Shown in pieces: positions 28,009 through 55,834 of a DNA stretch of 64,000 bases. The notes beneath the pieces were generated by a model, which worked only from the letters and a program-made list of their open reading frames with translations, did not search any database and was not told the origin of the DNA. Positions within the stretch are counted from its first letter, which is position 1. The number at the start of each line of letters is the position of its first letter. This stretch comes from Synechococcus sp. (GTDB lineage: Bacteria; Cyanobacteriota; Cyanobacteriia; Thermostichales; PCC-7336), in assembly GCA_051439425.1 (NCBI GenBank), contig JBFRWD010000102.1, positions 5,603 through 69,602 of the forward strand, read 5' to 3'. Both the position numbers and the translations under genes were made by a program.

Positions 28009-28998
28009 TTGCAGTTCTCTGTTCCAGCTATAACGGCCAGTTTCATGACCAAAAATCTCCCGATGCTCGCCCAACAGACTCCAACCGGAGACTTGGATAT
28101 TTGCGATCGCCGGGTCGATTTTTTTACTCGACTAGTCAAAGGCGTCCTCGTTCTCGCCGGAGCAATTCTAACCATTACCCAAGTGGTGCAAATGATCCTC
28201 GATGGACAGAGTCTATCGCTATGGCTGGGGTTAGTAGCAGGCACTGGAATGACGTGGTTCGGTTGGAAAGCCCATCTGCGCAGCACCATCAAGCGAGTAG
28301 TGCTCAGGCATTCGTTCTCCGACAAATGGTTGGTGTGGTCTATCCCACTGGTTGTCATCGCCTCCATCGTTACCTTGCGTTACGTGGTGGGTCGCGAAAC
28401 ATTTCGAGGCATCAATGAAGAGGGAGGCGTGATTGAATACGGCACCTGTATAGCGTTCTTTCTAGCAGCCGTGTTTGCTGTACCCGTTGCCAAACAGTTG
28501 TGGAGACAAGGAAACAGAGTGCTGGGAGGGGCGTATGGTCTATTCACCCTCCTGTTGGGGTTTGTAGCATTTGAGGAAATTAGCTGGGGGCAGCGCCTCT
28601 TGGGAGTGAAGTCACCGGAATTTTTCGAGACTCACAATTCCCAAGCCGAGATCACGCTGCATAACTTGCTTTGGGTAAACGAGCTGATCGATCCCGCATT
28701 AATTGTGGTTGGGCTGCTGGGGGCATTTAGCTGGTTCTTGCTGGGAGCGCTCTCTCGTAGCTCGAATAGTCTCCTCAGGGGCGGATACGCGCTGTTTGTG
28801 CCGAGCTGGTTTTTGTCCTCCTACTTCCTAGTGGTGAGTGCTGTATACACCTGCACCAAATACATCGAGCCCGCTTATTACACTATGAGCATTTACGGAG
28901 AGACGGCGGAATTAGTCCTATCCCTCGGGTTCTTGATGCTGGTATTGAGCAGCTATTTCCGTCAGTGCGTGAGCAAACACTTTCCATTCAGTCGCTAG
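28009..28998 (+). CDS. Multi-pass membrane protein of unknown function
   Basis: About 8 TM segments; motif FEEISWGQR..PEFF..HNSQAEITLHN; start uncertain. Confidence 0.75.
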   Translation: MQFSVPAITASFMTKNLPMLAQQTPTGDLDICDRRVDFFTRLVKGVLVLAGAILTITQVVQMILDGQSLSLWLGLVAGTGMTWFGWKAHLRSTIKRVVLRHSFSDKWLVWSIPLVVIASIVTLRYVVGRETFRGINEEGGVIEYGTCIAFFLAAVFAVPVAKQLWRQGNRVLGGAYGLFTLLLGFVAFEEISWGQRLLGVKSPEFFETHNSQAEITLHNLLWVNELIDPALIVVGLLGAFSWFLLGALSRSSNSLLRGGYALFVPSWFLSSYFLVVSAVYTCTKYIEPAYYTMSIYGETAELVLSLGFLMLVLSSYFRQCVSKHFPFSR

Positions 28999-30506: not shown

Positions 30507-31532
30507 GTGAGTCGTTCAACCAGTTCCCTACGATCGTTTGTCATTACCCGACTCCTGTTGTTGCCAGTCACATTGTGGGCAGTTTCGACCTTCCTATTCG
30601 TTCTACTAAGAATCACGGGCGATCCGATCGACGCCGCCCTTGGCCCGCGGGCATCAGAAGCCGCACGCGAACAAATGCGTCAAGCTATGGGGCTGACTGG
30701 CACGTATTTCGAGCAGTACCTGCGCTACATGGGTCAACTGCTGCATTTCGACTTAGGGACTTCCTTATCAACCACGGGTAAACCCGTTTGGGACATTATT
30801 GGGGATTTCTTCCCCGCCACCCTGGAGTTAGCGATTGGCGGTCTAGTTGTCTCCTTAGTCCTTGCCATTCCATTTGGTTTGCTAGCAGCCACCCATCCCG
30901 ATAGTCCCATCGACACTGCCACCCGTACCACCGGCATTTTGACGTATGCCATTCCGGTGTTCTGGATTGGGATGCTCTTGCAACTCATCTTTGGGGTGTT
31001 TTTGGGCTGGTTTCCGATTGGCAATCGCTTGCCTCCCGCCCTCAGTCCACCCACACATTTCACGGGGCTATACACCATCGATGCGGCCATTGCCCGAGAT
31101 TGGCCAACATTCACGGCCGCACTGCACCATTTGGCCATGCCTGCATTCACATTGGGCTTGGTCTTAGCTGGGGTATTTGCCCGCATGATTCGGGTACATA
31201 TGTTAGAGGTGCTGACATTGCCATTCATAGCGGCAGCACGGGCAAAAGGTCTGGCCGAATGGCGGGTGACTCTGCTGCATGCCGGACGGAATGCGCTAGT
31301 GCCGATTCTGACCGTGATTGGACTGGCTCTTGCCTCCCTAATGGGGGGCGCATTACTGACGGAGGTGACGTTTTCGTGGCCGGGATTGGCCAGACGCTTA
31401 ATGCTGGCTATTGGCGATCGCGATTATTTCGTGGTGCAGGGGCTAGTGGTATTCTTCGCTGCGATTGTGGTCACGATGAGTTTGCTGCTGGATATCCTCA
31501 ACGCTTACATCGATCCCCGCATTCGGTACTGA
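30507..31532 (+). CDS. Peptide/nickel ABC transporter permease (DppB family)
   Basis: GDPIDAALG, FDLGTS, FPATLEL, AARAKGL..H..RNAL, VTFSWPG, AYIDPRIRY. Confidence 0.92.
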   Translation: MSRSTSSLRSFVITRLLLLPVTLWAVSTFLFVLLRITGDPIDAALGPRASEAAREQMRQAMGLTGTYFEQYLRYMGQLLHFDLGTSLSTTGKPVWDIIGDFFPATLELAIGGLVVSLVLAIPFGLLAATHPDSPIDTATRTTGILTYAIPVFWIGMLLQLIFGVFLGWFPIGNRLPPALSPPTHFTGLYTIDAAIARDWPTFTAALHHLAMPAFTLGLVLAGVFARMIRVHMLEVLTLPFIAAARAKGLAEWRVTLLHAGRNALVPILTVIGLALASLMGGALLTEVTFSWPGLARRLMLAIGDRDYFVVQGLVVFFAAIVVTMSLLLDILNAYIDPRIRY

Positions 31533-33584
31533 TGGCTGCTGCCGTGTGGGTTTCGGTGCGACATGGGCAGCATAATCGGCTTTAACGCGGTCAAATAGGG
31601 TGCGATCGCCGCCTTTCAATCCAACCACTTCGTACAGTTCAGTCTCGGCACTACGGCCTCTCAACTGCTGAGCCCCCAGGGGATTAACGTCGATCTCGTC
31701 CACCACCAAGTCATATACAGATTGGGTCACAATCAGGTCAGTCTTGTATTCCTTGGTCAACGATTCAACGCGACTCGCTACGTTAACCGCATCACCGATC
31801 GCCGTATATTCCAGCCGCTGGGGCGAGCCAATATTTCCGACCACAACGTCCCCAAAGTTAATCCCAATACCGTTAAACATCAGGGGTTTACCCTCTTTGG
31901 CCCATTCTGCTCGCAGATCTGCTAATGCCGATCGCATCGCAAGCGCCGCTTGAATCGCATTCAACGCATCTTGCTTGTGGCCAGAGCTAACGGGAGAGCC
32001 AAATTCCGCCATCACCGCATCCCCAATGAACTTGTCTACACATCCTTGGTGTCGGGTGATGGCATCCACCATCGTGCCCAAGTAACGATTCAGTTGGGGG
32101 ACGAGTTCTTCGGGGGGAAGCTGGCTGGAAATGGTGGTGAAGCCCCGAATGTCTGAGAAGAGCAGAGACACTTTCAGGCTCTTGCCGCGAAAGAGATCTT
32201 GCAGGCCCTTTTGTTGGTTGGAGATGATTTCGGCAGCGACCGGAGCAGAGACATAGCGTTCGAGGGTTGTTTGCATGCGCAGACGACCGAGGCGATCGGC
32301 GATCGCAATATTCACCGCATCCGCCATCCCTGAAAAAAACAGCGCCGCACCAGCCCATATGGTTACCGTAACAACCCAGCCAGAGAGAAATAGACCATAG
32401 GACAGCCCCACCCACACAGTGGTGGCAGCCAATGTTCCCAAGACCACGTATTTCGTGTTGGTGGGCCGCGTCACTAGCCAGCCTCCCCCCAACCCCACCA
32501 TCAAGATAGTTAGCATTTGCCAGGGGAGAGGCATAGTTTGCATCCACTGTCGCGTCTGCAGGTTAGCCAAGTTGGTGAGCACAATTTCCGGCCCCGGCAT
32601 CCGCCCCCAAGGAGTGGTGTGAATGTCTTGCAGAGCAGGACTGGTGGCTCCAATCAAGACAATTTTGTCGCGGAAGGTGGTGTCATCAATGTTGGCTGCG
32701 CGCAGTGCAGGAACCATCAATTGCGAATAGGAAATGTACTCCAGCGTTCTGAGTTCGCCGTAGTAGTAAGCCCAGTCCCCCGAACGACGGGGCAGTGATT
32801 GTCCAGCTGCCTGCAGGCCAGCTTCCGCCAGTGAGAGAAGCTCTCCCCCGCGTAAGTGGGGAATGTCTGGGGGTTGAAATGTCGTGGACAGGCGGTAGAT
32901 AACGCTATTGTCAGCGGGGACGACGTTGGTGTAGCCCACTCGAACGCCAGTATTGAGAAAGGTAGAAATAGGTAAGGTGACCCGGTTGATGGTGCCTTGG
33001 CGGAGATCGGCTTGAGGATAGTGACCTGCCAAAACGATGCGATCGCTATATTGCTCTAGAACTTCAGCAAAGGTGCGATCGTCGCGGGGACCGTAGGAGC
33101 TACCGGTGTTGAAGATAACATCGAAAATAACGGCTTCGGCGCCTGCATCCATTAGCAGTTCGACGGCTCGGGCATGAACTCTGCGGGGCCACGGCCAGGA
33201 GTCCATGGCTTTGAGGATAGGGGTTTCTTCTAGCTCCTCTGGCCACACTAGATCTGTGACAGTCAAGGCTTCGTCATCAATAGCCAGCAGCACCACATTG
33301 TCAGGCGGAGTTGTCTCTCCGCGCAGTCGCGTGAACAGTGACATCAACTCCAGTTCGTAGCGGGTGAGGGAGAGATTGTGGCGACTAGCTTGCAGGACAC
33401 GCCCTAGCCATGCAGGCTGTAAAGAAAGAACAAAATCACGGGAAGGCAGACTAATTAGCCACAAAAATAAGACGATACCGGTAGCTCCCGATATGGCCAG
33501 AAGTTGGCGGCGATTTCGCTTAGAGCGCAATCGAGTTGGAGAGCGGGCGAGGCTATCTCGTAAAGATTGCAGCGGGCTGAACAT
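31443..33584 (-). CDS. CHASE2-domain class III adenylyl cyclase
   Basis: CHASE2 (VVLLAIDD, WPWPRRVHA, VLIGATSPALQDIHTTPWG), TM helices, cyclase FSDIRGFT, DKFIGDAVM, EYTAIGDAVNVASRVE. Confidence 0.93.
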   Translation of the reverse strand: MFSPLQSLRDSLARSPTRLRSKRNRRQLLAISGATGIVLFLWLISLPSRDFVLSLQPAWLGRVLQASRHNLSLTRYELELMSLFTRLRGETTPPDNVVLLAIDDEALTVTDLVWPEELEETPILKAMDSWPWPRRVHARAVELLMDAGAEAVIFDVIFNTGSSYGPRDDRTFAEVLEQYSDRIVLAGHYPQADLRQGTINRVTLPISTFLNTGVRVGYTNVVPADNSVIYRLSTTFQPPDIPHLRGGELLSLAEAGLQAAGQSLPRRSGDWAYYYGELRTLEYISYSQLMVPALRAANIDDTTFRDKIVLIGATSPALQDIHTTPWGRMPGPEIVLTNLANLQTRQWMQTMPLPWQMLTILMVGLGGGWLVTRPTNTKYVVLGTLAATTVWVGLSYGLFLSGWVVTVTIWAGAALFFSGMADAVNIAIADRLGRLRMQTTLERYVSAPVAAEIISNQQKGLQDLFRGKSLKVSLLFSDIRGFTTISSQLPPEELVPQLNRYLGTMVDAITRHQGCVDKFIGDAVMAEFGSPVSSGHKQDALNAIQAALAMRSALADLRAEWAKEGKPLMFNGIGINFGDVVVGNIGSPQRLEYTAIGDAVNVASRVESLTKEYKTDLIVTQSVYDLVVDEIDVNPLGAQQLRGRSAETELYEVVGLKGGDRTLFDRVKADYAAHVAPKPTRQQPSVPNAGIDVSVEDIQQQTHRDHNRSEEYH

Positions 33585-33678
33585 GGTGTAAGAACCCGAA
33601 AAAAACTGCAGGAAAAGTATTTACTCGAATTAACAAGCTTACGAGCATCTCATCTTTGCTCCTCACTTGTTTGCTCGC

Positions 33679-34365
33679 TCAAATCAGTAGATCTTCTAAG
33701 TCGTCCATGCTGGGGATACAGATAATATCTCGATCACGATCGCGCTGTATCAACCCTTTTGTCTCCAACTTTCCCAAAATTCGGGTCACCGTCTCTCGTG
33801 CCAAACCGCTCAAACTCCCCAACTCTCTGTGGGGCAAATTGGGAATTTCCACCCCCGCCCGACTCACACGACCGCGAAACTCTGCCAAGAATAAAAGAAT
33901 ATCCACCACACGCGCATTGCTACCCGACTCCCGCAACTGCAACCGCCGATTAATCTGCCGCAACCGCCGCGAAATCAGCTGGGCCAACCGCACCCCACAG
34001 GCCGAGTCCGCCTCCAAAAAATCCACGAACGTCTTCGCCGGTAACAGCGCCACCTTCGCCTCTGTCAACGAAATCACATCCGTCGATCGCGGCGATTCAT
34101 CCAACGCCGCCATCTCCCCCACCACTTCCCCCGGGCCCAAAATGTTGAGCGTGACTTCCTTACCATCAATGTTGTAAGTGCGAATTTTTACCCACCCTTC
34201 CACCACAAAATAAACACTGCTGCCCCAGTCATCCTGCAAAATAATCGTCTGATTCTGGGGATGCTGGCGCACCGTCATCTGCTTGCCCAGATTGCCGAGC
34301 ACATCGGGAGAAAACCCCTCAAACAAGGGCATCAATCTCAACTCATCCGCAGACAGACCGGCCAT
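33679..34365 (-). CDS. Crp-family transcriptional regulator
   Basis: cNMP pocket GEMAALDESPRST; HTH HRELGSLSGLARETVTR. Confidence 0.93.
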   Translation of the reverse strand: MAGLSADELRLMPLFEGFSPDVLGNLGKQMTVRQHPQNQTIILQDDWGSSVYFVVEGWVKIRTYNIDGKEVTLNILGPGEVVGEMAALDESPRSTDVISLTEAKVALLPAKTFVDFLEADSACGVRLAQLISRRLRQINRRLQLRESGSNARVVDILLFLAEFRGRVSRAGVEIPNLPHRELGSLSGLARETVTRILGKLETKGLIQRDRDRDIICIPSMDDLEDLLI

Positions 34366-34419
34366 GAACTCACCAATGAACGAGCAATTTACTCTCGACA
34401 GTAACCAAATCAGCCTGTC

Positions 34420-35898
34420 CTAGCGACCAAAAATCTTAACGATCCCCGATCGCACCAGTTCAAACAGACTTGCCGTTTCCTCCAACTGCCGCTGCCGATC
34501 GCCATCTACAAGTGAGGTCGTTCGCGATCGCTCCGCAATCACCTGTGCAATTCGCTCTGCCATCTCCGGATTAGCATCCAACAACTGTTGAAACGCCTTG
34601 CGCTCGAACGCCAACAACTCCGTATCCTCCACCGCCATCACCGTGGCCGTCCGCACCTGGCCCGTCAACACTGCAATTTCGCCAAAATACTCTTCTGCTT
34701 TGAGGCGAGCCAACACCGGTCGCCCCGGCTTCAGCAGGACATGTACTTGACCGCTGAGAATGATGTAAAAGCGATCGCCCTCTTCCCCCGCTCGACACAC
34801 CATCTCCCCCACCGTATAGCGCAGCAACTGCCCGGAATTGAGAAAGTCCTTCTGCTGTTCGGGAGAACACATCTGCAAGAAATCCACAGCCTGTAACTTA
34901 GCCAATGCCCCTGCAGGCAGCTGCGATCGCCCATTCGGATGATGGCGGCGAATAATCGTATCGCGGATTGGAAACGGTACTGTAATCCCGGCTCGCTCTA
35001 GGGAGTACCACACCCGCTGGCGAATCTGACTTTGGATCCGTCGCTGTTCCCCCGGAAGGCGGCTCCAATACAAAACCTGGTAATTAATTGAGAAATCGGC
35101 ATAGTCCTTCACAATCACCGATACAGGAGGTTGCTGCAGCACACCGTCTACAGATTGGGCAGCTTGTTGCAACACCCGAATAATTTGACTGGGTGGAGTC
35201 TTGTATCCGAGGCCAAAATCGACCTGTTGGGCAAACGCTTTCTCGCGACTGAAATTGACCAACTTCGAACGGCCAATCGAGCTATTGGGAATCGAGATCG
35301 TTTCGCGATCGATAGTCCGAATCACCGTCGCTCGCCAATTCAACGACAACACCTCCCCCCGACACTCATCCACCGCAATCCAATCCCCCTGCAAAAACGG
35401 CGCATCCATTTGCAGGCCAATTCCTGCAAAGAAATTCGCCAGTGTTTCCTGCAGCGCAAAACCAATCACCACCGCTCCAACCGTCGAGATGGTGAAAATC
35501 CAGTTGAAAATCCCCCGCAAATCTACGCCGTCAAACAGGTTAGAAATCAGCAGCGCCAAAACAGTCGAGCTAATAAATACCTGAGTCAGGTCAAAGAAAA
35601 TGCGCGGAGGCGGGCGGTTGAGAGTGCGGCGGAGCGGCTCAATCGCACCCTGTACCATCAGCACGGAAACAATCACTCCAATCGCCACCGTCAGATAGGG
35701 ATAAAAACTCCCTAAAAATCTGGGAAACGCCAAGGACAGAGCCAACCACAACCAGATGGCCACCTGGCATAACATCAGCGGCACCCCAATCGCCTGATGC
35801 CAGCGGGGTAGCGATCGGTAAAGCTGGCGATTGAGCCACCATGTAGAACTCAGACCAACCGCCAAGACTATTGCTAAAATGCCAACGCTAATTGGCAT
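34420..35898 (-). CDS. MscS-family channel with C-terminal cyclic-nucleotide-binding domain
   Basis: GFALQETLANFFAGI, GDWI, IPNS, GITVPFP MscS motifs followed by YFGEIAVLTGQVRTATV cNMP motif. Confidence 0.92.
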   Translation of the reverse strand: MPISVGILAIVLAVGLSSTWWLNRQLYRSLPRWHQAIGVPLMLCQVAIWLWLALSLAFPRFLGSFYPYLTVAIGVIVSVLMVQGAIEPLRRTLNRPPPRIFFDLTQVFISSTVLALLISNLFDGVDLRGIFNWIFTISTVGAVVIGFALQETLANFFAGIGLQMDAPFLQGDWIAVDECRGEVLSLNWRATVIRTIDRETISIPNSSIGRSKLVNFSREKAFAQQVDFGLGYKTPPSQIIRVLQQAAQSVDGVLQQPPVSVIVKDYADFSINYQVLYWSRLPGEQRRIQSQIRQRVWYSLERAGITVPFPIRDTIIRRHHPNGRSQLPAGALAKLQAVDFLQMCSPEQQKDFLNSGQLLRYTVGEMVCRAGEEGDRFYIILSGQVHVLLKPGRPVLARLKAEEYFGEIAVLTGQVRTATVMAVEDTELLAFERKAFQQLLDANPEMAERIAQVIAERSRTTSLVDGDRQRQLEETASLFELVRSGIVKIFGR

Positions 35899-36112
35899 AC
35901 TCTTTCACCGAGTTAGTACCATCACCGGAATCATTCGTCATCCGGATTGCAATCCTCATTCGAAGATGTCTGCTGCCCTACTAGCACACCGACCTCGGGG
36001 GCTGCTGCTCCAGTTTTAGCGCAAGCCCGTTTCTCTGGCCGCTGTCCTCAATGAGTAAGTGAGACAATCGGTTGCATTGATTTCCGGACCCGTTATTTGT
36101 GAGGCTGACCGA

Positions 36113-37423
36113 ATGGTTTCTACTGCCCCCAGCTCAACTACTAGCTTTAGCTCAAATAGCATGATGCCCGTCGCAGACGCAGAACGGCTCGTCCTCGGCT
36201 GCGCCCAACCTCTTGGCACCGAATGGATTGAACTGGGTAGTGCCACCAGTCGTGTTCTGGCATCCGACCTACTGAGCCCGCACGATTTCCCTCCGGCCCC
36301 CACCTCCAGCATGGATGGCTACGGCGTCCGTCATGCCGACCTCACCAGCATCCCCTGCGACTTGTCCGTCATTGAAACCTTACCGGCAGGTACCGTCAGC
36401 CAAACAGCCCTCCAACCGGGCCAAGCAGCCAGATTATTCACCGGCTCCGAGCTGCCTCCAGGAGCTGACACAATTGTGATTCAGGAGGATACGCAGCGGA
36501 CAGGAAATACCGTCAAGGTGTTGGAAGCCTATCCGTTGGGCAAATTTGTCCGCCAGCAAGGGCAATTTTGTCAAGCAGGCGATCGCCTCATGGCCACCGG
36601 CCAGGTATTGGGGGCTCCCGAAATCGCCCTACTGGCAGCAGTACGCCACCTTAACCTGCAGGTGTACCGGCAGGCCAGAGTCGGGATTTTTTCCACCGGC
36701 GACGAGCTAGTCAGCCCGGAACAGCCACCCCAACCGGGTCAGGTTGTGGATTCCAACCAACCGGGATTGAGTGCGCTCGTTCGACAAGCGGGGGCCATTC
36801 CCCACCGGTTTGGCATTGTCAAAGATACCGAGTCGGGTGAGATTGCTGGCGGTAAAGGAGCCCTGAAACAGGCGATCGCAGCAGCTCTGGCCACGTGCGA
36901 TGTCATTCTCTCCAGTGGCGGCGTCTCAGTCGGAGACTACGACCACGTCGAATCAGTCTTGGAAGACTTAGGCGCCGATATTCTCATCCGCAAGGTTGCC
37001 ATCAAACCCGGAAAGCCATTCACATTCGCCACCTTCCCGAGAGCATCTGGCTCCCCTCAGCTATACTGCGGCTTACCCGGAAACCCCGTATCGGCAATGG
37101 TGTGTTTTTGGCGATTTGTCCTACCAGCATTGCACAAGCTCCACGGCCAGCAACCACCGTACTCACCCGGATTCACCACCGCGATCGCCCAGTCAGAACT
37201 ACGTGCTGGCGGTGTGCGAGAAACCTATTTGTGGGGTCGAGTGGCGATCGTTCGTAGGGGACACGAGAGCGGACAATTACACTTTTTCCCTGCCAACGAG
37301 CACGGCTCGGGCAATCTAGTTAACCTGGCGGGAACCAACGCTTTAGCCGTCTTGCCTGTCGGAACCCAGCGGGTTAACGCAGGAGCATCCGTCGCCATTT
37401 TGATGACAGCACCGCTGACATAA
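36113..37423 (+). CDS. moeA: Molybdopterin molybdotransferase MoeA
   Basis: SSMDGYGV, RLFTGSELP, STGDEL, VDSN, SSGGVSVGDYD, IKPGKP, LPGNPVS; start 36113 or 36158. Confidence 0.94.
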   Translation: MVSTAPSSTTSFSSNSMMPVADAERLVLGCAQPLGTEWIELGSATSRVLASDLLSPHDFPPAPTSSMDGYGVRHADLTSIPCDLSVIETLPAGTVSQTALQPGQAARLFTGSELPPGADTIVIQEDTQRTGNTVKVLEAYPLGKFVRQQGQFCQAGDRLMATGQVLGAPEIALLAAVRHLNLQVYRQARVGIFSTGDELVSPEQPPQPGQVVDSNQPGLSALVRQAGAIPHRFGIVKDTESGEIAGGKGALKQAIAAALATCDVILSSGGVSVGDYDHVESVLEDLGADILIRKVAIKPGKPFTFATFPRASGSPQLYCGLPGNPVSAMVCFWRFVLPALHKLHGQQPPYSPGFTTAIAQSELRAGGVRETYLWGRVAIVRRGHESGQLHFFPANEHGSGNLVNLAGTNALAVLPVGTQRVNAGASVAILMTAPLT

Positions 37424-45838: not shown

Positions 45839-46840
45839 CTACGTCAACTCCGCAAAAGCCGCAGCAGTCTCCACCCTCTTATCCACTTCAGCCAGAGCCC
45901 TCAGCACAATTTCAATGCCTCCGCCCAACTTCAGCCCTTCGGTAATCTCCCGCTTCCAGGCACGCGTCCCTGGCTGTCCTGCAAACAACTGCAACATGTG
46001 ACGCGTTATCGAATTGAGCTTTGTCCCCTTGCTCAGCCACTCCTCGATGTAGGGCAACATTCCCTGCACAACATCTCTACGGCTGGGGATAGATGTTGAT
46101 TCCTCATACAAATCGCGATCCACGGTCGCAAATAGATAAGGTGTATCGTAGGCAGCCCGGCCAATCATGACTGCATCCACTGACTGCAGGTGATACTCCA
46201 CCTCTGCTAATGTCTTGACTCCCCCATTGACCTCGATAAGCAAATGAGGGAATTCTTGCTTAAGACGATAAACATCCTCATATCGCAGTGGCGGAACTGT
46301 GCGGTTTTCCTTCGGACTTAAACCCTGTAACCAAGCTTTTCTCGCATGAACCGTAAATCTGGTGCACCCTGCATCCGCAACAACTCGCACAAACTCTCGC
46401 ATATCTTCGTAGCGGTCGCGGTCGTCTATCCCAATCCGATGTTTGACGGTGACAGGAATAGAAACCGCAGTTCGCATTGCCTCTACACAACGCGCCACCA
46501 GATCGGGTGCCCCCATCAAACAGGCCCCGAAATTCCCGCTCTGCACCCGATCGCTCGGACAACCAACATTCAAGTTAACTTCGTCATATCCCCAATCTGA
46601 AGCAATACGGGCGCATTCGGCCAACTCCGTAGGGTTATCTCCACCCAACTGCAAAGAAATAGGATGCTCGATCGGAGAAAAATCTAGTAAACGACTGCGA
46701 TCGCCTTTCAAAATCGCCTTGGTTACTACCATTTCGGTGTACAGTAACGGCCGCCTAGCCAATTGCCGCATGAAATAGCGGTAGTGGCGATCGGTACGAT
46801 CCATCATAGGAGCTAGGCTTAGGATATTTCCTGAAAGCAT
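45839..46840 (-). CDS. dusA: tRNA-dihydrouridine synthase A
   Basis: APMMDRTDRH, QLGG, NLNVGCPSDRVQSGNFGACLM, VKHRIG, VHARKAWLQGLSPKENR, MIGRAAY. Confidence 0.96.
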   Translation of the reverse strand: MLSGNILSLAPMMDRTDRHYRYFMRQLARRPLLYTEMVVTKAILKGDRSRLLDFSPIEHPISLQLGGDNPTELAECARIASDWGYDEVNLNVGCPSDRVQSGNFGACLMGAPDLVARCVEAMRTAVSIPVTVKHRIGIDDRDRYEDMREFVRVVADAGCTRFTVHARKAWLQGLSPKENRTVPPLRYEDVYRLKQEFPHLLIEVNGGVKTLAEVEYHLQSVDAVMIGRAAYDTPYLFATVDRDLYEESTSIPSRRDVVQGMLPYIEEWLSKGTKLNSITRHMLQLFAGQPGTRAWKREITEGLKLGGGIEIVLRALAEVDKRVETAAAFAELT

Positions 46841-47142
46841 GAATAGCTTGGTAAAGTTGAAGTCAATCTAAATCAAAAGGCACATAAAACAGGCCATTTT
46901 ACATGATATCTTATATACCCAGAAAAGCAGTACAGTAAATCGTTTTACATTAAAAGAATGATGAACTCTCAATTCTTATAAAATTATGCCGGAAAATAAT
47001 GGGATAGAAGTTGCGCAAATCATAAGTGAGAAATGTTAGCATAAGCAATTATAGGAATAGAATTTTTAATGGGTTTACATAGATACTTTTTATCAATGGT
47101 ATCTGAGCTTCTGGTTGTATTTCAAAAGAGATAAGGGTCTGT

Positions 47143-47276
47143 CAGGGCTGTTTCATTCTAGTTATTGACATTCTATGCATTTACGAGAATAAGCTGTTTC
47201 AGCTATCCAGCAAGCTATTTGAAGATGCGCCATGGCTCCAAGACTCGTTGCTCAAATCTAGAATGAAATGCCCCTG
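47143..47276. mobile_element. 134-bp MITE-like element with CAGGG ends (ISAs1-like termini)
   Basis: TIRs CAGGGCTGTTTCATTCTAG / CTAGAATGAAATGCCCCTG (16/19); flanks AAGGGTCTGT / AAGGGTTTTT (8/10), a degenerate 10-bp TSD. Confidence 0.72.
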
Positions 47277-47832
47277 AAGGGTTTTTCATGATAGGTATTG
47301 TGTAAATAATTAGATCATTAGTCATTATAGGAAACAAATGTTCAGAAACAATATATAGCCCATAATGGTCATCATATGTTAGTTTAAAAAGGCATGAATG
47401 TGCCATCCTTAAATAAGGAACAGTAGATATAACTGAAGACTAGAAGTGGAAAGAATCTAGTGCCAAAGGAATCATTGAAGAGCATTAAGAGAAAGAATGT
47501 TCTAATCAAAACAAATTATCGTCATTTATATTTTAGCTAAATAGCTTAAGCGTAACTGGACGAGCAATATTCAATCTCCAGTTTAGAAGTTTCAGGTATC
47601 TAGAAATAATGCCCTCAACTAAAAAGTGGGTTGATGAAAGAATCAAACATATCATTGGGCTCAACATTAGAATGGGTTTGCTGAAAACAATAAAAAGGGT
47701 AGTAATTATTATTACAGAGCTTATGGACATAATATAGCACTAGCAATCAAAGCTTACTTCAGAGAAGGCAAATCGAGGCACCATTTGTATGAATGAGTTT
47801 TCGTAGATCAACACTCTCAATAATCAGCAATA

Positions 47833-49003
47833 GGGTGCATCCCAGTTTTGAAAAGAGCATAGAGGTTGCAGGCGAGTAGAGAGGTTAAGGTGCAAGAGCA
47901 AGTCCTCGCCGAGCCATCATGGATGCAGAGAAACTAGCGAAAGTGCAAGCACACACAACAGCAATAGCAGCCTTGCTGTACGAAGAAACAGACCCCGAAC
48001 AAGTGAAGACGCTGGAAGGAATAGAACAGGCCATCCGAGGTCATTTATTGGAAACCGTTGGCCCTCAGATGGCAGATTTTTTATCCAAACGAGCAGTGGT
48101 GCAAGCTCGGGACGCCAACGGCGAATTCAAAGCATCATCGGAGCCATAAAAATCAGCGAAAGGCAGGCTGAACAGTTGCGAGTAAAGAAGCACACCCGAT
48201 GGAGTCCCTACGTGGAGAGATGCTGTCTGCTGGTAAGTGCGAATGTGTCTGACGAGCGGGCTTCGGAGGATATCCAGATGTTGACCGGTATTGCTGTCTC
48301 CAGGGGAACTCAACAGCGACTGGTGCACCGTCAGAGTTTTGAGGAGCCGGTAGGGACAGCCATCGTAGAAGAGATGAGTCTGGATGGAGGTAAGGTGCGT
48401 CTACGAACGCCGAAAGGTCAAGCGTGCCAATGGCGTGACTACAAAGCCGTCAATCTCCATGAACAGAGAATTGCAGCTCGATTTCAAGACAATGGTGGAT
48501 TAATCCATTGGGTCAATCAACACCGATTGGGGCAGCCGTTGGTTTGCTTGGGAGATGGCCATGATGGCATCTGGAATCTGTTTGCCAACATCGGTAGTGA
48601 TGAACAGCGCTGTGAAGTGTTGGATTGGTACCACTTGATGGAAAACCTGGGTAGGGTCGGTGGCTCGCCACAACGACTCCACCGGGTGGAGACTCTGCTG
48701 TGGCAAGGGAATGTTGATGGGGTGATTGACCAATTTCGAGATTGGCAACACCAGCGGGTAGAACGCTTCATTGCCTATCTGAACAAGCATCGCCACCGCA
48801 TCGTCAACTACAGCTATTTCCAGGCGGAGGGGATTTCCATTGGCTCAGGCTCGATTGAGTCCGCCATCAAGCAGATTGGCCGGCGCATTAAGATTTCGGG
48901 CGCTCAGTGGAAGGCAGACAATGTCCCCCAAGTTCTCAAACATCGTTGTTTCTATCTCAATGGATGCTTCTCTGCCTGATAACTGCAAAACTGGGATGCA
49001 CCC
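47833..49003 (+). mobile_element. Complete ISKra4-family-like insertion sequence (1171 bp)
   Basis: Perfect 18-bp TIRs GGGTGCATCCCAGTTTTG / CAAAACTGGGATGCACCC; perfect 8-bp TSD CAGCAATA (47825-47832, 49004-49011). Confidence 0.93.
47919..48979 (+). CDS. DDE transposase in two frames joined by a -1 shift (about 353 aa)
   Basis: ORF 47919 joins the -1 frame at T TTT TTA (48077-48083); SLDGGKVRL, LGDGHDGIWN, IGSGSIES motifs. Confidence 0.88.
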
Positions 49004-49510
49004 CAGCAATATTAGCTATCGCTGGAGGTGAAGGATCTAATATCGAATCTTAATGAAAGCAAATAGATAAAATAGTAGTTCCAAACATCTTGCCTGTAGC
49101 CTAAGAACTATAAGAATATCTCAGTGTAAGAGTCGCGGAGCTTGTTGATATGCCACTAAATCCAATTAGCGTGAATATGTCTTGAACAGAGGTTCATCTA
49201 TATTGTGAGATTTCCACTCTAACAATATGCAATGCAAAGCCAGAAATATAAATATGACAGAGATAAGAATTGAGGAATATATCATTCTCATAGGAAAGGG
49301 GAAGGAAGAACTAAATTCGGTCGCCACCCTAGTTCACAGGTACTATGGCAATGCAAACTACAACTAGGGAAATCAAATAAACCGTTTTTAACAAATCGAA
49401 AGGATTTATCATGAGCACCATTCTTCGGGATCAACAGCTGAACTAAATCCTAGAGGAAGGCTTGCATCTAATAGAAAGAACAAATGGAATGAAACTCATA
49501 GGTAAGCATT

Positions 49511-50473
49511 GTGATAGGCTATTTAATGAAAAACGCACGATTTGATATAAAAATGAATGCCAAACACAATAAACTAATTAACACAGCAGGGGGACCTCTT
49601 CCAAATTTGCTAATCATTGGAGTTCAAAAAGCAGGCACAAGTTGGCTACACAGAAGACTAGCATCTCAAAGCAAAATCTTTATGTCCCGCAAAAAAGAAC
49701 TTCGTTATTTCACAGGGACTGAAGACGACTTTTCTCAATCTAGATTTGATGAATACTTAGCTAATTTTAGTGATTCAATTCCAAATGATATAGTGATCGG
49801 AGAGTCCACTCCAAGATATTTTCCAAATTGGAATTCAGAAAACGGACACACTGCAAAGCATAACATTCCACAACATATTCAAACAATATTAGGAGAGAAT
49901 GTCAAGTTAATATTAATATTAAGACATCCGGTATCAAGAGCAATTTCGGGTCTTTTTCATCACTTTAAGATGGGAAGAATTACAAATGGTGAGGGTATAT
50001 TTTCTGAAAACTCAGAATCATTCAAGTCACTTCAAAAAGGAATAGTTGATATAGGCTACTATCATAAGCACTTTGAAGCATGGGATAAAGTTTTTGGGGA
50101 AGATAAAATGCTCGTGTTATTTCATGATGATATTTCCAGTAACAGCAGCAAGATGTTACAGGATATATCCAGATTTTTAGACTTACCTATTGAGGTCGAT
50201 GATAACTTTTGGAATGTTATTCATAAATCAGGTGATTTCCGAATAGTCAATGGAGCTCTAACGTTTAAGAATCAATCAGAATGGACTAAGAAAAGAATTA
50301 CAAGTGCAAAGTTGAAAAGCGGATTGAAGGATATTATCCTACCTCAAGTATCAGAAACTGACGTAGATAGGTTAAATGATTTATATTTTGAAACAGTACA
50401 GTATGTTTTACAAAGATATCCAGATCGATGTAGATGGAATCAGAAGTATAAATTAACCGACTATCTATTATAA
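49511..50473 (+). CDS. PAPS-dependent sulfotransferase
   Basis: 5'-PSB motif IIGVQKAGTSWL and 3'-PB motif ILRHPVSRAIS. Confidence 0.88.
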   Translation: MIGYLMKNARFDIKMNAKHNKLINTAGGPLPNLLIIGVQKAGTSWLHRRLASQSKIFMSRKKELRYFTGTEDDFSQSRFDEYLANFSDSIPNDIVIGESTPRYFPNWNSENGHTAKHNIPQHIQTILGENVKLILILRHPVSRAISGLFHHFKMGRITNGEGIFSENSESFKSLQKGIVDIGYYHKHFEAWDKVFGEDKMLVLFHDDISSNSSKMLQDISRFLDLPIEVDDNFWNVIHKSGDFRIVNGALTFKNQSEWTKKRITSAKLKSGLKDIILPQVSETDVDRLNDLYFETVQYVLQRYPDRCRWNQKYKLTDYLL

Positions 50474-51555
50474 AATGCTCCCCCTTCATACCACTTATGA
50501 AGAATCATTTATGGACTTTCTATATGTGAAGGATATGGAAGACATCAGAGGGCGGTTGAAAGGTCAATGACATAGCTAACAAAGGTATTAATAATCTCAC
50601 CTTAAAATACATCGAGAGGGTAAAAAAGATGCTCAGGGTGGTAGTTAATAAATCGGAAAACAACGGAGAAATAGAAGCGAGACGTTTGTTTCAAAGCTAA
50701 TTAAAGTGTACAAACCAGTCATGGAATCTCAGCTCCATTCGCTAGAATCCTCCCAGCATCAATCGTCAGCGACAAGCTAATGGTAGTGATTTGGATTGCA
50801 TCAATAATGTGAGACTTTGGATGTTTAATACGAATATAAAGTTAAATCGCATTAGTCAGATTGAAGAGTGGCATCTGGATTATGTCAGCCACATAGAAAG
50901 TGGACCGCTAAGTAAAAAGTCCTCAAAGCTAACGAATGGAGATAAATGAAAAGAAAAGCCAGAGATACATTAGATATCAGCAGTAAATCAATCAATCTCT
51001 GTATTAAGCAAAGCGAAAAAAGGGTTAGTTTCTCAATAATTGCAGAGTCGAAGGAGAATGGTCAAAAACTAAGAACCAGCAGGCATTTCGAAAAGTAGGT
51101 AACGATTAGGAAACAGCCGCTGGAAAACCTTTGGGCAGGTATCTTTCAGTTACTGAAAGAAGGGGATAGCACGAGTATAAACGTACTCTTATAAAAAATT
51201 AAAACCAGTGATTGAATGAAGTATTCCTGGGTAATAAGAGTGCTTCTCTCAAGAAGTTTTAAAGAACAGTAGTATTTTTTAACGTCTTAGATAACAATAA
51301 ACTATTATTTAAAATAAATATACCATAAGAGATTGAAAAGCAATTATTTAAAACTAGTGTGATCTCCTTCATTTAACCAATTCGTGGTTTCTATATAATC
51401 GAACAAGTTGAGTTTATCTATGAATTTCTAATGGAATAGATTTGAAAAACGAATAACAACTAATCCACAGAATAGTTATTCGAGATAAGGCACAGTCAAA
51501 ATGTAGTATAATTATTAGAATGTGCTAGATCAATCTCGATAGATGTTGAATAATT

Positions 51556-51678
51556 GGATGCATCCCAGTTTTGCAGCGAGTATAAATACTTGCAACTTCA
51601 ATCCTTCTCATAGCAATGCTTTTGAGGGGGCTTGAAAAAATGCGAGGGGTGAGCTTTCTACATAATTGGGATGCGCCC
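51556..51678. mobile_element. 123-bp MITE with the same TIR family as the IS at 47833
   Basis: Ends GGATGCATCCCAGTTTTGCA / AATTGGGATGCGCCC; perfect 8-bp TSD GAATAATT (51548-51555, 51679-51686). Confidence 0.88.
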
Positions 51679-51760
51679 GAATAATTGAAGTATTTAATCA
51701 GATGTGTTGTAGTGACTTAAGTATTTATTAGCTAGAAAGCAATTACTGTATATAAAAAAG

Positions 51761-52561
51761 ATGGCTCAACTAAATTCCTCTACAATCCGTCCAAACCTTC
51801 GTATAGTACTTGAACTGTCACGCCAGGATTTAGCTGTAAATAATTCTCGCTCGAATCTAGGCTGGTTATGGTGGTTCTTAGACCCACTTGCCCAGATTGG
51901 GATCTTGTGGTTTTTTAAGGTTCTGGTTTTTGGAGTAGATAGATATCAACCGTATGTTATTTTCGTTGGATGCGCAATTATCTGTTGGAAGTTTTTAAGT
52001 TCATCAGTGAATCGTTCATCAAATCTATTGCGTGCTAAAGAATCGCTGATAAAGTCTTTCCCATTTCCAACAATCGTGCTTCCATGCTCGCTAGTTTTTA
52101 CACAATTAATATTCTTTTTGACAGGGTTAATCGTTTTGATAGGAGTAGCAGTATTAATCGGTCAACCAGTTACACCAATGCTGCTTCAGATTATACCATT
52201 AACACTTTTGATGATACTTGCAGTTTTAGGTGTTACTTTGTTAGTAGCAGTTTTAGGTGTCTTTCTGCAAGATTTGAACAATATAACTACACACCTACTC
52301 CGGATTCTTTGGTACCTTAGCCCAGGAATATACAGCACATCTCTGGTAGCAGAGCGTTTCGGAGTAGACCCAACATGGGTGAGAATATATAAACTCAGTC
52401 CAGTTGCAATTCTTTTTGAAGGCTTTCGTTCTTCAATATTTAGTCCAGAATGGATTTCACCTCAAGACTGGATTGTATTCGCAGGATTCTCCTTCATTGC
52501 CGTTACAATTGGTTTTGCAACCTATCAACGCTTCGATCGGCGACTAATCAAGTACTTTTAA
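51761..52561 (+). CDS. ABC-2 polysaccharide export permease (Wzm/KpsM/TagG-like)
   Basis: SNLGWLWWFLDPL, LIKSFPFP, FLQDLNNI, WYLSPGIY; about 6 TM segments. Confidence 0.92.
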   Translation: MAQLNSSTIRPNLRIVLELSRQDLAVNNSRSNLGWLWWFLDPLAQIGILWFFKVLVFGVDRYQPYVIFVGCAIICWKFLSSSVNRSSNLLRAKESLIKSFPFPTIVLPCSLVFTQLIFFLTGLIVLIGVAVLIGQPVTPMLLQIIPLTLLMILAVLGVTLLVAVLGVFLQDLNNITTHLLRILWYLSPGIYSTSLVAERFGVDPTWVRIYKLSPVAILFEGFRSSIFSPEWISPQDWIVFAGFSFIAVTIGFATYQRFDRRLIKYF

Positions 52562-53418
52562 TGAGAAAGAATATTACAAGAACAGCAGATAGTGCAAAAA
52601 ACGAGCACAAGCAAGCAATCTTGGAGGCGAGAGGCGTAGGGTTGTGCTATAACCTCAAAACAGCTAAAGCATTTAAGAATCGACGTAAAGCTGCAAAGAT
52701 TAAAGACTTGCGATTTGAGGACAATTTATTTTGGGCCCTTAGAGATATAAACCTTGACTTCTACTCGGGGCAAACAATTGGAATAATCGGTCCTAACGGT
52801 GCTGGCAAAAGCACACTATGTTCCGTCCTCGCTGGTATTATTCCTCCTGACGAAGGAATTGTAAAATCTAGAGGAGATGTTGGAGCACTACTTTCGATTG
52901 GAGCTGGTGGCTCTGGTTGGCTAACTGGCCGTCAAAATATTATGACAACATCTATTTTATTTGGTTTATCTCGCGAAGAGATCAAAGAAAGAATTGATGA
53001 GATCATTGAATTCTCTGGGCTTGGCGAACATATAGATCAACCTGTACGAACCTATTCATCTGGAATGAAGTCGAGACTCACTTTTTCTGTTGCTACGTGT
53101 ATTGAAAGAGAAATCTTATTCCTCGATGAAGTTTTGAGTGTAGGAGACAAATCCTTCAAAAAGAAAGCACAAAAGCGTATGACTGCGATGATGAGTTCAA
53201 GCAAGTTAGTAGTCGTAGTTTCCCATAGTCTATCTTTTGTAAGAGAGACTACTACACATTGTCTCTGGCTAAACAAAGGACGTGTAAAGAGATTTGGAAA
53301 GCCAGATGATGTAGTTGCTGCATACGAAGAATTTGAAGAGAGAAAACAAGAGAAGAAACAAAAAAGAAAAGCCAAACGAAATCCACAAACTAATGAGGTT
53401 CAACAATCAAGTTACTAA
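52561..53418 (+). CDS. ABC polysaccharide export ATPase (Wzt/KpsT/TagH-like) without C-terminal CBM
   Basis: ATG overlaps the permease stop (TAATG); FWALRDINL, GPNGAGKST, YSSGMKSRL, ILFLDE, VSH; 285 aa. Confidence 0.93.
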   Translation: MRKNITRTADSAKNEHKQAILEARGVGLCYNLKTAKAFKNRRKAAKIKDLRFEDNLFWALRDINLDFYSGQTIGIIGPNGAGKSTLCSVLAGIIPPDEGIVKSRGDVGALLSIGAGGSGWLTGRQNIMTTSILFGLSREEIKERIDEIIEFSGLGEHIDQPVRTYSSGMKSRLTFSVATCIEREILFLDEVLSVGDKSFKKKAQKRMTAMMSSSKLVVVVSHSLSFVRETTTHCLWLNKGRVKRFGKPDDVVAAYEEFEERKQEKKQKRKAKRNPQTNEVQQSSY

Positions 53419-53593
53419 ATAGATAATACAAACATGAATACTTATATTATCTGGCAGAGATGATTTTTTCTTAAAAAGACAAAATCCTAAAATATCCGAA
53501 TATAGCTTCTGGTATGTCTAAGAATACCTAGTGCAAAATAGCTCTCTTCCATAAAAGAACTTAACTACATGGAGGTAGCAGTCATAAATAGCT

Positions 53594-54940
53594 CTAATTA
53601 GTCATTTCTTTTTGATAGACCTGATTTAACAACTTATTGAATTTTGCAATTTTAGGATTTATCTGAATAGATTTTCTAAGAACAGATGCCGCACGTACCG
53701 GTCCGCTATACTTCAAGAAATCTTTGACAATGCCTCTGTAGTAATTATCATCGGTGATTCCAATCTCAATGGCGTTTTGAAAAGAATGTTCCAGCAAGTA
53801 TTTTGAGGCTGGATGACAGTCTTCACTATGTTCACGCAAAAACCTAGAGTAATGCAGACAAAGGATAGGGTTATCAAGAATTAGAGTAGGTATAGAGAAG
53901 TCACCACTAGTTCTATTTAGATCTTTATTATATTCTGGAAGGATTTGACGAAAGAAATCAAGCGTTGTTAAGTCATAGGATTCAACTATCTGAGAAATAT
54001 CTGTATAATTCTCTTGCTCTCCAGGATGACCATCATGTGGATTAAAATCTTTCTCAAATAAAAGCGAAAGGTCTGTATCAAACAACTTATCTATCTTCAT
54101 TAAAGGTTTTCTGTTGTTGACAGTTATTACACTATCAAGAACAGGTTTTAGAACTGGTTTTGTCATTATCAGATTTTCAGAGAGTATGGCATGTATTTTC
54201 TTGAAGAAAAAGAGAATATTATTAGATTTAGTATGATGGTAGCCACTATGCTCTGCAAGAAAATCTCGCCTATAGTTCTGCAAAAGGATCATTTGCTCAG
54301 AGCTCAAGGATAAGTTCTTATTTTTGCTTTCATGAGAAAGATGGCTTAAGCTTTCACTAGTAAAGTCTTCTAGCCTTTTATAAAAATCTAGAACAACGTC
54401 ACCACCCGACAGTTTACGTTTATCAAATGCCTGTAAACTAAAGCAATCTTTACCTACTAAAGAAATCCAACGCTCAAGAGGCCTATAAACCTTTATTTTA
54501 AACTCCAGTGGGTTTGAAATAATATGGTCAGCTTTGACTCTCTGTTGCATTAGAGAAAGGTAGAAGTCTGCAGGCCTGCGAATGTATGCGATTACTTTAA
54601 TAGAACTAAATTTAATATCAATAGAATCTAGCAGTATTTTCTGTTGTTGCTCACTGATACCTAACAAGTTTTCGGCAGACATCAGTATACATCTTACATT
54701 ATGTTTTAGAGCCAGTTCTCGAATCTCTCTTAAGGAGTTTTGAGCTTGATTTTTTAGGGAGTAATGTTCTTCCCTAGGAGCTCTAGTATTTCCACCCAAA
54801 GCATAAATCAAATTTAAGTGGCTTCTCTCAGTGTGATAGAGAATGCCAGACTTGAGCAGCAATTTTGCGTTAACTCTCAAGTCTTTCTGTATGCTCGTTG
54901 TTCCTGTTTTTCCTTGGCCTACATGTAAGATCAAATCCAT
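53594..54940 (-). CDS. Sulfotransferase-like P-loop protein
   Basis: MDLILHVGQGKTGTTSIQ and YIRRPADFYLS; ATG at 54940. Confidence 0.7.
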   Translation of the reverse strand: MDLILHVGQGKTGTTSIQKDLRVNAKLLLKSGILYHTERSHLNLIYALGGNTRAPREEHYSLKNQAQNSLREIRELALKHNVRCILMSAENLLGISEQQQKILLDSIDIKFSSIKVIAYIRRPADFYLSLMQQRVKADHIISNPLEFKIKVYRPLERWISLVGKDCFSLQAFDKRKLSGGDVVLDFYKRLEDFTSESLSHLSHESKNKNLSLSSEQMILLQNYRRDFLAEHSGYHHTKSNNILFFFKKIHAILSENLIMTKPVLKPVLDSVITVNNRKPLMKIDKLFDTDLSLLFEKDFNPHDGHPGEQENYTDISQIVESYDLTTLDFFRQILPEYNKDLNRTSGDFSIPTLILDNPILCLHYSRFLREHSEDCHPASKYLLEHSFQNAIEIGITDDNYYRGIVKDFLKYSGPVRAASVLRKSIQINPKIAKFNKLLNQVYQKEMTN

Positions 54941-55834
54941 CTCATACCCTCTCAAAGCTTTTTTATAAAAAATCCTCAATAATAGAATTCAAGGAAAATA
55001 GAAATATATCTTATATTTCAGCTTGAATAGAAGTAAGAGAATTAAACACATTTAATACCTTAATCTATATTGCATCACAAAAGGCTATAAAGCGATGAAT
55101 TCTACCTAGCTCTGTAAGAATGCATATCAAGGCTTTTTCTTATATAAACTGCTCGGTAGCTTTTCAAAAATTTTACTTTAGCATCCACAATAGTAACACA
55201 AAAAATAAATTATCATAAGGGATACTAGAAAAGAACAATAGTATATTTAATGCCCATACACATGAACACCAACTCTATGTCTATCAATGCACTTATTATA
55301 CAACCACTTTAATGTCAAGCTTTCAATCTCTGATTTATTCTTCTACTAATCTTTTAATAAGATTTATACCCTAGCATTGACTTATGCAAATTCCAATATC
55401 TCTCCAGAAGTATTTAGGTCATTCCTATAGAGTTTATATTCAACGGACTTAAATATCTCTGGTATCTTTAGACAGTGTCGGCGAATCAACTTCTGAAGTT
55501 TTACCATTCCAACTCATACATAGAACTCCAAAATAGACCTCCAATATCTTAGACGATTAAAATATTTCCTAAACAGAAATCTTTAGTAGTTTTATCACTG
55601 CAATTAGTAACTACTTCTTTGTTATTTTTGTGACAAGTGCATCACTAGCTAGGATTAGGATAGAATTTCTGACTCTAGAGTCATTCACCCCATCCTCTTT
55701 AGCTCGAACAATCGTGCTAGTTTTATTGGCCATCTGATATCGGAAATCGAATCTCACAAGGTACAACAAATATTTAGTATAATAAACTTTTAGTCAACAC
55801 AGCACGCACTACTTTTCTTCATTCATTAGATGAC

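Follow-up and report, generated by a model that had tools for sequence, protein, structure and literature searches.

A compact cluster of three co-directional genes on the minus strand of a Synechococcus genome (Thermostichales) encodes a bCNG-type channel (for bacterial cyclic nucleotide-gated), a CRP-like regulator, and a CHASE2-type adenylyl cyclase. Judged from the domain and residue content of its products, the cluster probably represents a signalling module for cyclic AMP (cAMP) that is built from known parts and links one writer of the messenger with two readers, all embedded in a larger cAMP network. It is located in the window analyzed here, a stretch of 64,000 nucleotides on contig C102 of a cyanobacterial assembly of 4.8 Mb that is 96% complete. 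The channel gene (34420–35898; 492 aa) is followed by the regulator gene (33679–34365; 228 aa) after a spacer of 54 bp (34366–34419) and by the cyclase gene (31443–33584; 713 aa) after another spacer of 94 bp (33585–33678). These open reading frames (ORFs) agree with the first-pass annotation of this DNA, which had described three minus-strand genes with gaps of exactly that size. If its parts act together as predicted, the cluster would let a single sensor drive both a fast response through the channel and a slow one through CRP and would supply a member of the poorly understood bCNG channels with a likely cognate cyclase.

The cyclase matches the Pfam families CHASE2 (PF05226; E = 3.5e-38) and Guanylate_cyc (PF00211; E = 9.5e-22), which place the sensor domain at residues 72–368 (32481–33371, minus strand) and the catalytic domain at residues 471–646 (31647–32174, minus strand). 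All six catalytic residues (DKDTNR) are present in the motifs FSD478IRGF, DK518FIGD522, and YT594AIGDAVN601VASR605; they comprise the metal-binding Asp pair (D478 and D522), the substrate-specifying Lys and Thr (K518 and T594), and the transition-state residues (N601 and R605). A substrate-specifying Lys combined with a Thr that replaces Asp is reportedly the signature of class IIIb, a distinction attributed to Linder and Schultz. The best solved homologues are Cya2 of Synechocystis (2w01), which is the nearest, and CyaB of Pseudomonas aeruginosa (3r5g; E = 6.6e-36), whose motifs DKF.GD and YT.IG..VN.ASR coincide with those of the window cyclase. At the specificity positions, Lys518 and Thr594 align with the DKFVGD and YTIIG motifs of CyaB, whereas the alignment with Cya2 has Glu and Gly. 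Because the specificity residues match those of CyaB and differ from those of Cya2, which has been verified to synthesize cyclic GMP (cGMP; review PMC10117731), the signature indicates that the substrate is ATP and that the enzyme is of the class IIIb adenylyl type. Most likely, this membrane sensor makes cAMP.

The N terminus of the cyclase is rich in Arg and Lys and precedes a first transmembrane (TM) helix at residues ~28–46 (hydropathy). A further hydropathy call at residues 398–421 falls within a hydrophobic block (residues ~349–420) that, read by eye, appears to consist of three TM helices; three such helices after the sensor are usual for CHASE2 proteins. The basic N terminus, the first TM helix, and the second hydrophobic block together predict an extracytoplasmic CHASE2 domain and a cytoplasmic catalytic domain. 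Compared with the closest relative (genome G003), the CHASE2 domain shows an identity of 65%, whereas the values for the catalytic domain (91%), the channel (94%), and the regulator (97%) are much higher. Such fast divergence of the sensor relative to the remainder would fit a changing ligand or cue; we know of no report of a ligand for CHASE2 sensor domains. The tail of the cyclase past residue 650 is poorly conserved.

The channel shows matches to MS_channel_2nd (PF00924; E = 2.8e-18), MS_channel_3rd (PF21082; E = 1.4e-14), and cNMP_binding (PF00027; E = 3.7e-23), with five predicted N-terminal TM helices, the last of which is the MscS pore helix, followed by the beta and alpha-beta domains of MscS and a C-terminal cyclic nucleotide (cNMP)-binding domain. 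Residues 71–318 align with residues 38–279 of Escherichia coli MscS (E = 2e-24), so that V143, F147, E151, and G159 occupy the positions of L105, L109, G113, and G121; V143 and F147 form the hydrophobic constriction. The cNMP-binding domain (residues 360–443; 34570–34821, minus strand) carries an intact phosphate-binding cassette, FGEIAVLTGQVRTATV (FGE...RTA), with the pocket residues G406-E407...R416-T417. An MscS core with an appended cNMP domain is the architecture of the bCNG channels (Caldwell et al. 2010; Malcolm et al. 2012; PMC13591265), a group that was defined in 2010 and that, according to the same 2026 review, has no known role and no solved structure, in agreement with the earlier remark that these channels are poorly characterized. 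What sets the window channel apart are its five predicted TM helices and an identity of ~30% to the channels of the other cyanobacterial lineages sampled; an exact-match look-up of the protein returned no record.

Beyond the cNMP domain, the channel ends in a short tail of the sequence LFELVRSGIVKIFGR (residues 478–492; 34423–34467). Distant bCNG proteins share this basic amphipathic motif in forms such as WIRRRIQTIFGI and WVRKRLKNLFNL.

The regulator is composed of a cNMP_binding domain (residues 33–119; E = 9.5e-24) and a helix-turn-helix (HTH) region at residues 151–226 (HTH_Crp_2, PF13545, E = 9.1e-14; also PF00325). Its pocket residues G83, E84, R93, and S94 align with G71, E72, R82, and S83 of E. 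coli CRP (in whose sequence the canonical positions were confirmed), and its recognition residues R190, E191, and R195 correspond to R180, E181, and R185 (R-E-x-x-x-R). I138 and N139 take the positions of T127 and S128, the contacts to adenine N6. The closest solved structures are 4ev0, 4byy/4cyd/3r6s, and 3d0s/3i54, which are the CRP homologues of Thermus, Corynebacterium, and Mycobacterium, respectively, and E. coli CAP. Scores against the NCBIfam equivalogs remain below the cut-off for CRP (72.6 versus 266), PtrA (60 versus 300), and NtcA (48 versus 245), and none of the three cluster proteins falls into a named NCBIfam equivalog; by these comparisons, the protein is CRP-like but orthologous to none of the named regulators. 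On the level of domains and residues, the first-pass annotation thus stands: the class IIIb adenylyl cyclase pattern was recovered with all quoted motifs and catalytic residues, the G-E..R-(S/T) pockets of both channel and regulator are intact, and the channel belongs to the bCNG type.

The adjacency of the three genes is very unlikely to be a matter of chance. The entire window genome holds just three cyclase genes, ~15 matches to cNMP-binding domains, and a single bCNG gene, which renders a chance origin of the trio negligible (rough estimate <1e-5). Among the seven genomes sampled from the family (G000, the window genome, to G006), the order of the trio is shared by four and probably five. 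Two members of the same genus (G003 and G001) have the same gene order and the same flanks as the window, and a member of another genus (G006) has the same order up to the end of its contig; in G005, a contig carries regulator and cyclase with a gap of only 7 bp, whereas the channel gene is located at the end of a different contig.

Beyond the family, a survey of 401 cyanobacterial genomes identified bCNG-type genes in 151 genomes (69 of 169 genera) and CHASE2 cyclase-like genes in 327. In the channel tree, the window channel belongs to a lineage of 21 cyanobacterial sequences with an intact pocket, 13 of which are encoded within ~4 kb of a CHASE2 cyclase (families f1, f3, and f6). In family f3, this distance holds for seven genomes, three of which also have a CRP gene nearby; in family f6, cyclase and channel genes overlap in two genomes, and cases of tight adjacency include the overlapping genes of G033 and G059. 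The cyclase tree, which was read without locus L150 (a wrong ORF), places the window enzyme in a general clade of cyanobacterial CHASE2 cyclases that are mostly not channel-adjacent, whereas those encoded beside a channel in f3, f6, and Acidobacteria group elsewhere, so that channel adjacency must have been gained or lost a minimum of seven times. Because distinct clades of cyclases appear to have been recruited repeatedly beside the same type of channel, the trees provide good evidence for a functional tie. The adjacency reported in the first-pass annotation is therefore a conserved feature of the family, with analogous cyclase–channel neighbourhoods recurring elsewhere. The cluster CRPs of f1 and f3, which are candidate orthologs, group together with a support of only 58/49.

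A metagenome-assembled genome of Acidobacteriota (L067:4165–9332) places the gene of an M48 peptidase (Pfam E = 3.5e-26) between those of a CHASE2 cyclase and a bCNG channel, all on one strand. The same cyclase–channel pair thus also forms the basis of another type of three-gene unit.

Several findings weigh against the interpretation of the cluster as a cAMP module of linked writer and readers. Linkage is evidently dispensable, because G002, a closed genome from the same genus, retains channel and CRP with an intact ortholog of the cyclase 2.8 Mb away, and all three genes are unlinked in G004. Even where regulator and cyclase are neighbours, their spacer can be as short as 7 bp (G005) or as long as 496 bp (G003) in the relatives. 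Since the window genome encodes two further cyclases and ~15 cNMP-domain matches, cAMP is probably a shared pool. With respect to transcription, the presumed cluster promoter, a divergent intergenic region common to the cluster and moeA (35899–36160), contains no TGTGA-N6-TCACA site with up to two mismatches, and an enrichment of CRP boxes was not seen on the genome-wide scale either (a rough chance estimate exceeds the count of 64 sites with at most one mismatch, of which five are perfect), so that a regulon is not definable. The Arg-Thr pair in the cassette of the channel is found also in cGMP-binding domains, which makes cAMP a less certain ligand of the channel. Finally, bCNG channels gave no protection against downshock in E. 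coli, and the role of the nucleotide has been left open (PMC13591265).

In view of the shared pool, the description of the cluster as self-contained was an overstatement; neither the cluster nor its flanking genes encode a phosphodiesterase, and the cluster is not a closed circuit. Likewise, the cAMP-driven transcription proposed in the first-pass annotation lacks the expected sites both at the cluster promoter and, as an enriched set, across the genome, and the control of transcription by the module is putative.

Alternatively, the three genes might be ordinary members of a cell-wide cAMP network that are clustered for co-regulation or by history; channel and CRP would then answer to any cyclase, and the window cyclase would supply all cNMP-domain proteins equally. 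Such a loose neighbourhood is in line with the numbers of cyclases and cNMP domains in the genome, with the separation of the genes in G002 and G004, and with the placement of the window cyclase in a clade that is mostly not channel-adjacent. We nevertheless consider it unlikely, because cyclases of different clades have come to lie beside the channel more than once, and in several lineages tightly so, which is hard to explain without a specific functional tie.

A second alternative concerns the channel, which might be mainly a tension-gated osmotic valve whose cNMP domain serves as modulator or structural brake, without gating by cAMP. The MscS core with its hydrophobic constriction is fully conserved, the nucleotide's role in the gating of bCNG channels is unknown according to the review (PMC13591265), and a paper cited there (Malcolm et al. 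2012) reports one tension-gated bCNG in its title. On the other hand, the binding cassette is not only intact but conserved across the lineage, the gene is linked to a cyclase, and the failure of bCNG channels to protect E. coli from downshock (PMC13591265) does not speak for a valve, all of which makes a mainly osmotic function rather improbable.

That the messenger is cGMP rather than cAMP is very unlikely. Although the nearest solved homologue of the cyclase, Cya2, synthesizes cGMP (PMC10117731), the combination of Lys518 and Thr594 is that of CyaB and not the Glu and Gly of the Cya2 alignment. Likewise, the Arg-Thr of the channel cassette is shared with many cGMP-binding domains, whereas pocket and helix of the regulator match those of cAMP-binding CRPs.

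In many other cyanobacteria, the gene directly upstream of a bCNG gene and on the same strand encodes a cyclase-like protein of the dCache-HAMP type. As in the window, a membrane sensor cyclase is thus encoded beside a bCNG channel in co-directional fashion. In 12 of these pairs that were sampled (L037, L039, L042, L044, L046, L065, L068, L072, L074, L076, L077, and L088), the transition-state Arg is missing from most of the cyclases and the pocket Arg from every one of the channels (e.g., GEP-SPVSI). These degenerate, dCache-HAMP-partnered channels form a single supported clade that is separate from the lineage of the window channel. The window pair, by its residues, is the chemically competent counterpart of the degenerate pairs. 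Direct-contact signalling without a diffusible messenger, as the losses in the sister lineage might suggest, is barely credible for the window cluster, where neither the catalytic residues nor the two pockets show any loss and a soluble CRP is encoded between the genes of the two membrane proteins.

For the interpretation that we favour, namely a linked cAMP writer with two readers, the following sequence of events can be envisaged. The CHASE2 cyclase would reside in the membrane, where an extracytoplasmic cue may relieve or impose control on the IIIb domain. This domain is predicted to be active and specific for ATP, which it would convert to cAMP; its membership in class IIIb makes an additional response to CO2 or bicarbonate conceivable. 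cAMP would bind to the dimer of the CRP-like regulator and promote the recognition of TGTGA-type sites elsewhere in the genome, where its putative regulon would have to be located. It would also bind to the seven C-terminal cNMP domains beneath the cage of an MscS-type heptamer, and the ligand-bound channel might open or shift its tension threshold, causing a fast flux of ions or osmolytes beside the slower transcriptional response. In this interpretation, the genes would be co-transcribed, and the cyclase would feed these two receptors preferentially.

A broader scenario, which we offer only tentatively and which may well prove wrong, is that the bCNG lineage with intact pockets is activated by cAMP from neighbouring, repeatedly recruited CHASE2 cyclases, with CRP as an optional second output, whereas the sister lineage partnered with dCache-HAMP proteins has lost both the cyclase chemistry and the pocket. 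If this were true, a cue from outside the cell would be turned directly into a flux of ions or osmolytes, and the two lineages of channels would represent a natural experiment in which a second-messenger link either decays into direct coupling or arises from it.

The cluster has several precedents, which reduce the novelty that the first-pass annotation had implied. Among marine Synechococcus and Cyanobium, the genomic island module Syn_GI122 combines adenylate cyclases with a nearby CRP or cAMP-regulated MscS channel (Doré et al. 2020; PMC7522525). Genomes of family f3 show the same neighbourhood: a CHASE2 cyclase is encoded at a distance of 2–4 kb from the channel, and three of these genomes also have a CRP gene close by. 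However, Syn_GI122 is a loose island in which unrelated genes intervene and the orientation is often divergent, whereas the window cluster is a tight, co-directional trio of fixed order between native flanks, and its cyclase belongs to another clade of CHASE2 cyclases than that of the Syn_GI122-type neighbourhood.

In Sinorhizobium meliloti, the gene of a receptor-type CHASE2 adenylyl cyclase, cyaD1 (SMc02176), adjoins clr (SMc02175), which encodes a cAMP-dependent regulator of the CRP family. Clr and the cyclases CyaD1, CyaD2, and CyaK constitute a proven cascade in which an external signal is converted via cAMP into transcription, and CyaD1 without its CHASE2 domain produces cAMP constitutively. 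The pairing of a CHASE2 cyclase with a CRP is shared with the window cluster; the rhizobial system differs by the absence of a channel effector and by its organism, plant-derived signal, and regulon. Moreover, Clr binds to a defined Clr box beside its cluster, whereas no such site was found at the window cluster.

Cyclases with the same architecture as the window enzyme (CHASE2 domain, TM helices, and a class III catalytic domain) are also represented by Synechocystis Cya2 and the CyaA type of Anabaena and Spirulina; Cya2 is a guanylyl cyclase with Glu and Gly at the specificity positions, which are occupied by Lys and Thr in the window protein. A literature search that did not extend to the primary papers on bCNG channels came across no cyclase described as the cognate partner of a bCNG and, with the same limit, nothing on a tight channel–CRP–cyclase trio or on the split between intact and degenerate lineages. 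With its conserved partner, the window cluster makes a good test system and a contrast to the degenerate sister lineage; it does not introduce a new principle.

Regarding expression of the trio, the 54-bp spacer between channel and regulator gene contains no significant hairpin or terminator, as judged by a terminator scan and by folding against shuffled sequences, and the 94-bp spacer between regulator and cyclase gene is likewise without significant structure (z = −0.33 in folding against shuffles) and without a terminator. A separate promoter of the cyclase is possible, because the corresponding spacers of the relatives are not only variable in length but also fail to align. It is likely in G003, because the spacer of this closest relative (L031:10094–10589) harbours an AT-rich insert of ~400 bp, which is absent from the window. 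In alignments, the region upstream of the channel gene (35899–36160) is conserved with G003 alone; on its far side, the true start of moeA is likely at ~36161.

Autoregulation of the cluster by its own CRP was considered and rejected; a promoter site is lacking, and the number of sites with up to two mismatches in the window (16) does not reach expectation (28). Approximately 41% of the CRP-box sites in the genome are located in non-ORF DNA, which makes up 24% of the genome. Perfect TGTGA-N6-TCACA palindromes in non-ORF DNA are present at C22:15836, C159:12184, and C43:2996, with a CP43/IsiA-like gene, a Dps-like gene, and a transposase region in their vicinity. These three intergenic palindromes are possible CRP targets, although their number does not exceed that expected by chance.

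The neighbours of the cluster are moeA, cbiC, moaC, and ftsH on one side; on the opposite side, they encode an ABC permease and a glycosyltransferase. The abundance of HIP1 sites had been taken as a sign that the cluster is long-resident. HIP1 sites are indeed numerous in the window (44 observed versus 1.07 expected), and six of them are located in the cluster, but their density (1.35 per kb versus a genome mean of 0.86 per kb) is ordinary for this genome, where 22.8% of the windows of equal size contain at least six sites; it indicates merely that the cluster is not recently foreign. Recent horizontal transfer of the cluster can be rejected, as its GC content (0.537) is close to that of the genome (0.514), HIP1 sites occur at a normal density, and G003 and G001 share the flanking genes in synteny. 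The domain calls and the adjacency of the earlier interpretation are hence sound, whereas its self-containment, the weight of HIP1, the control of transcription, and the novelty do not hold at the strength originally given.

The 3' end of the cyclase gene overlaps with the convergent ABC permease gene by 90 bp (31443–31532), and the two genes also overlap in G001 (by 90 bp) and in G003 (by 48 bp). An ORF on the plus strand (28009–28998; 329 aa), located upstream of the glycosyltransferase gene, encodes a protein with several hydrophobic stretches and without a Pfam match. Elsewhere in the window, the GC content falls to 0.35–0.44 between positions 46000 and 58000, and a single HIP1 site (46697) is present within 46–60 kb. 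Because of its low GC content and the near-absence of HIP1, the region at 46000–58000 was probably acquired.

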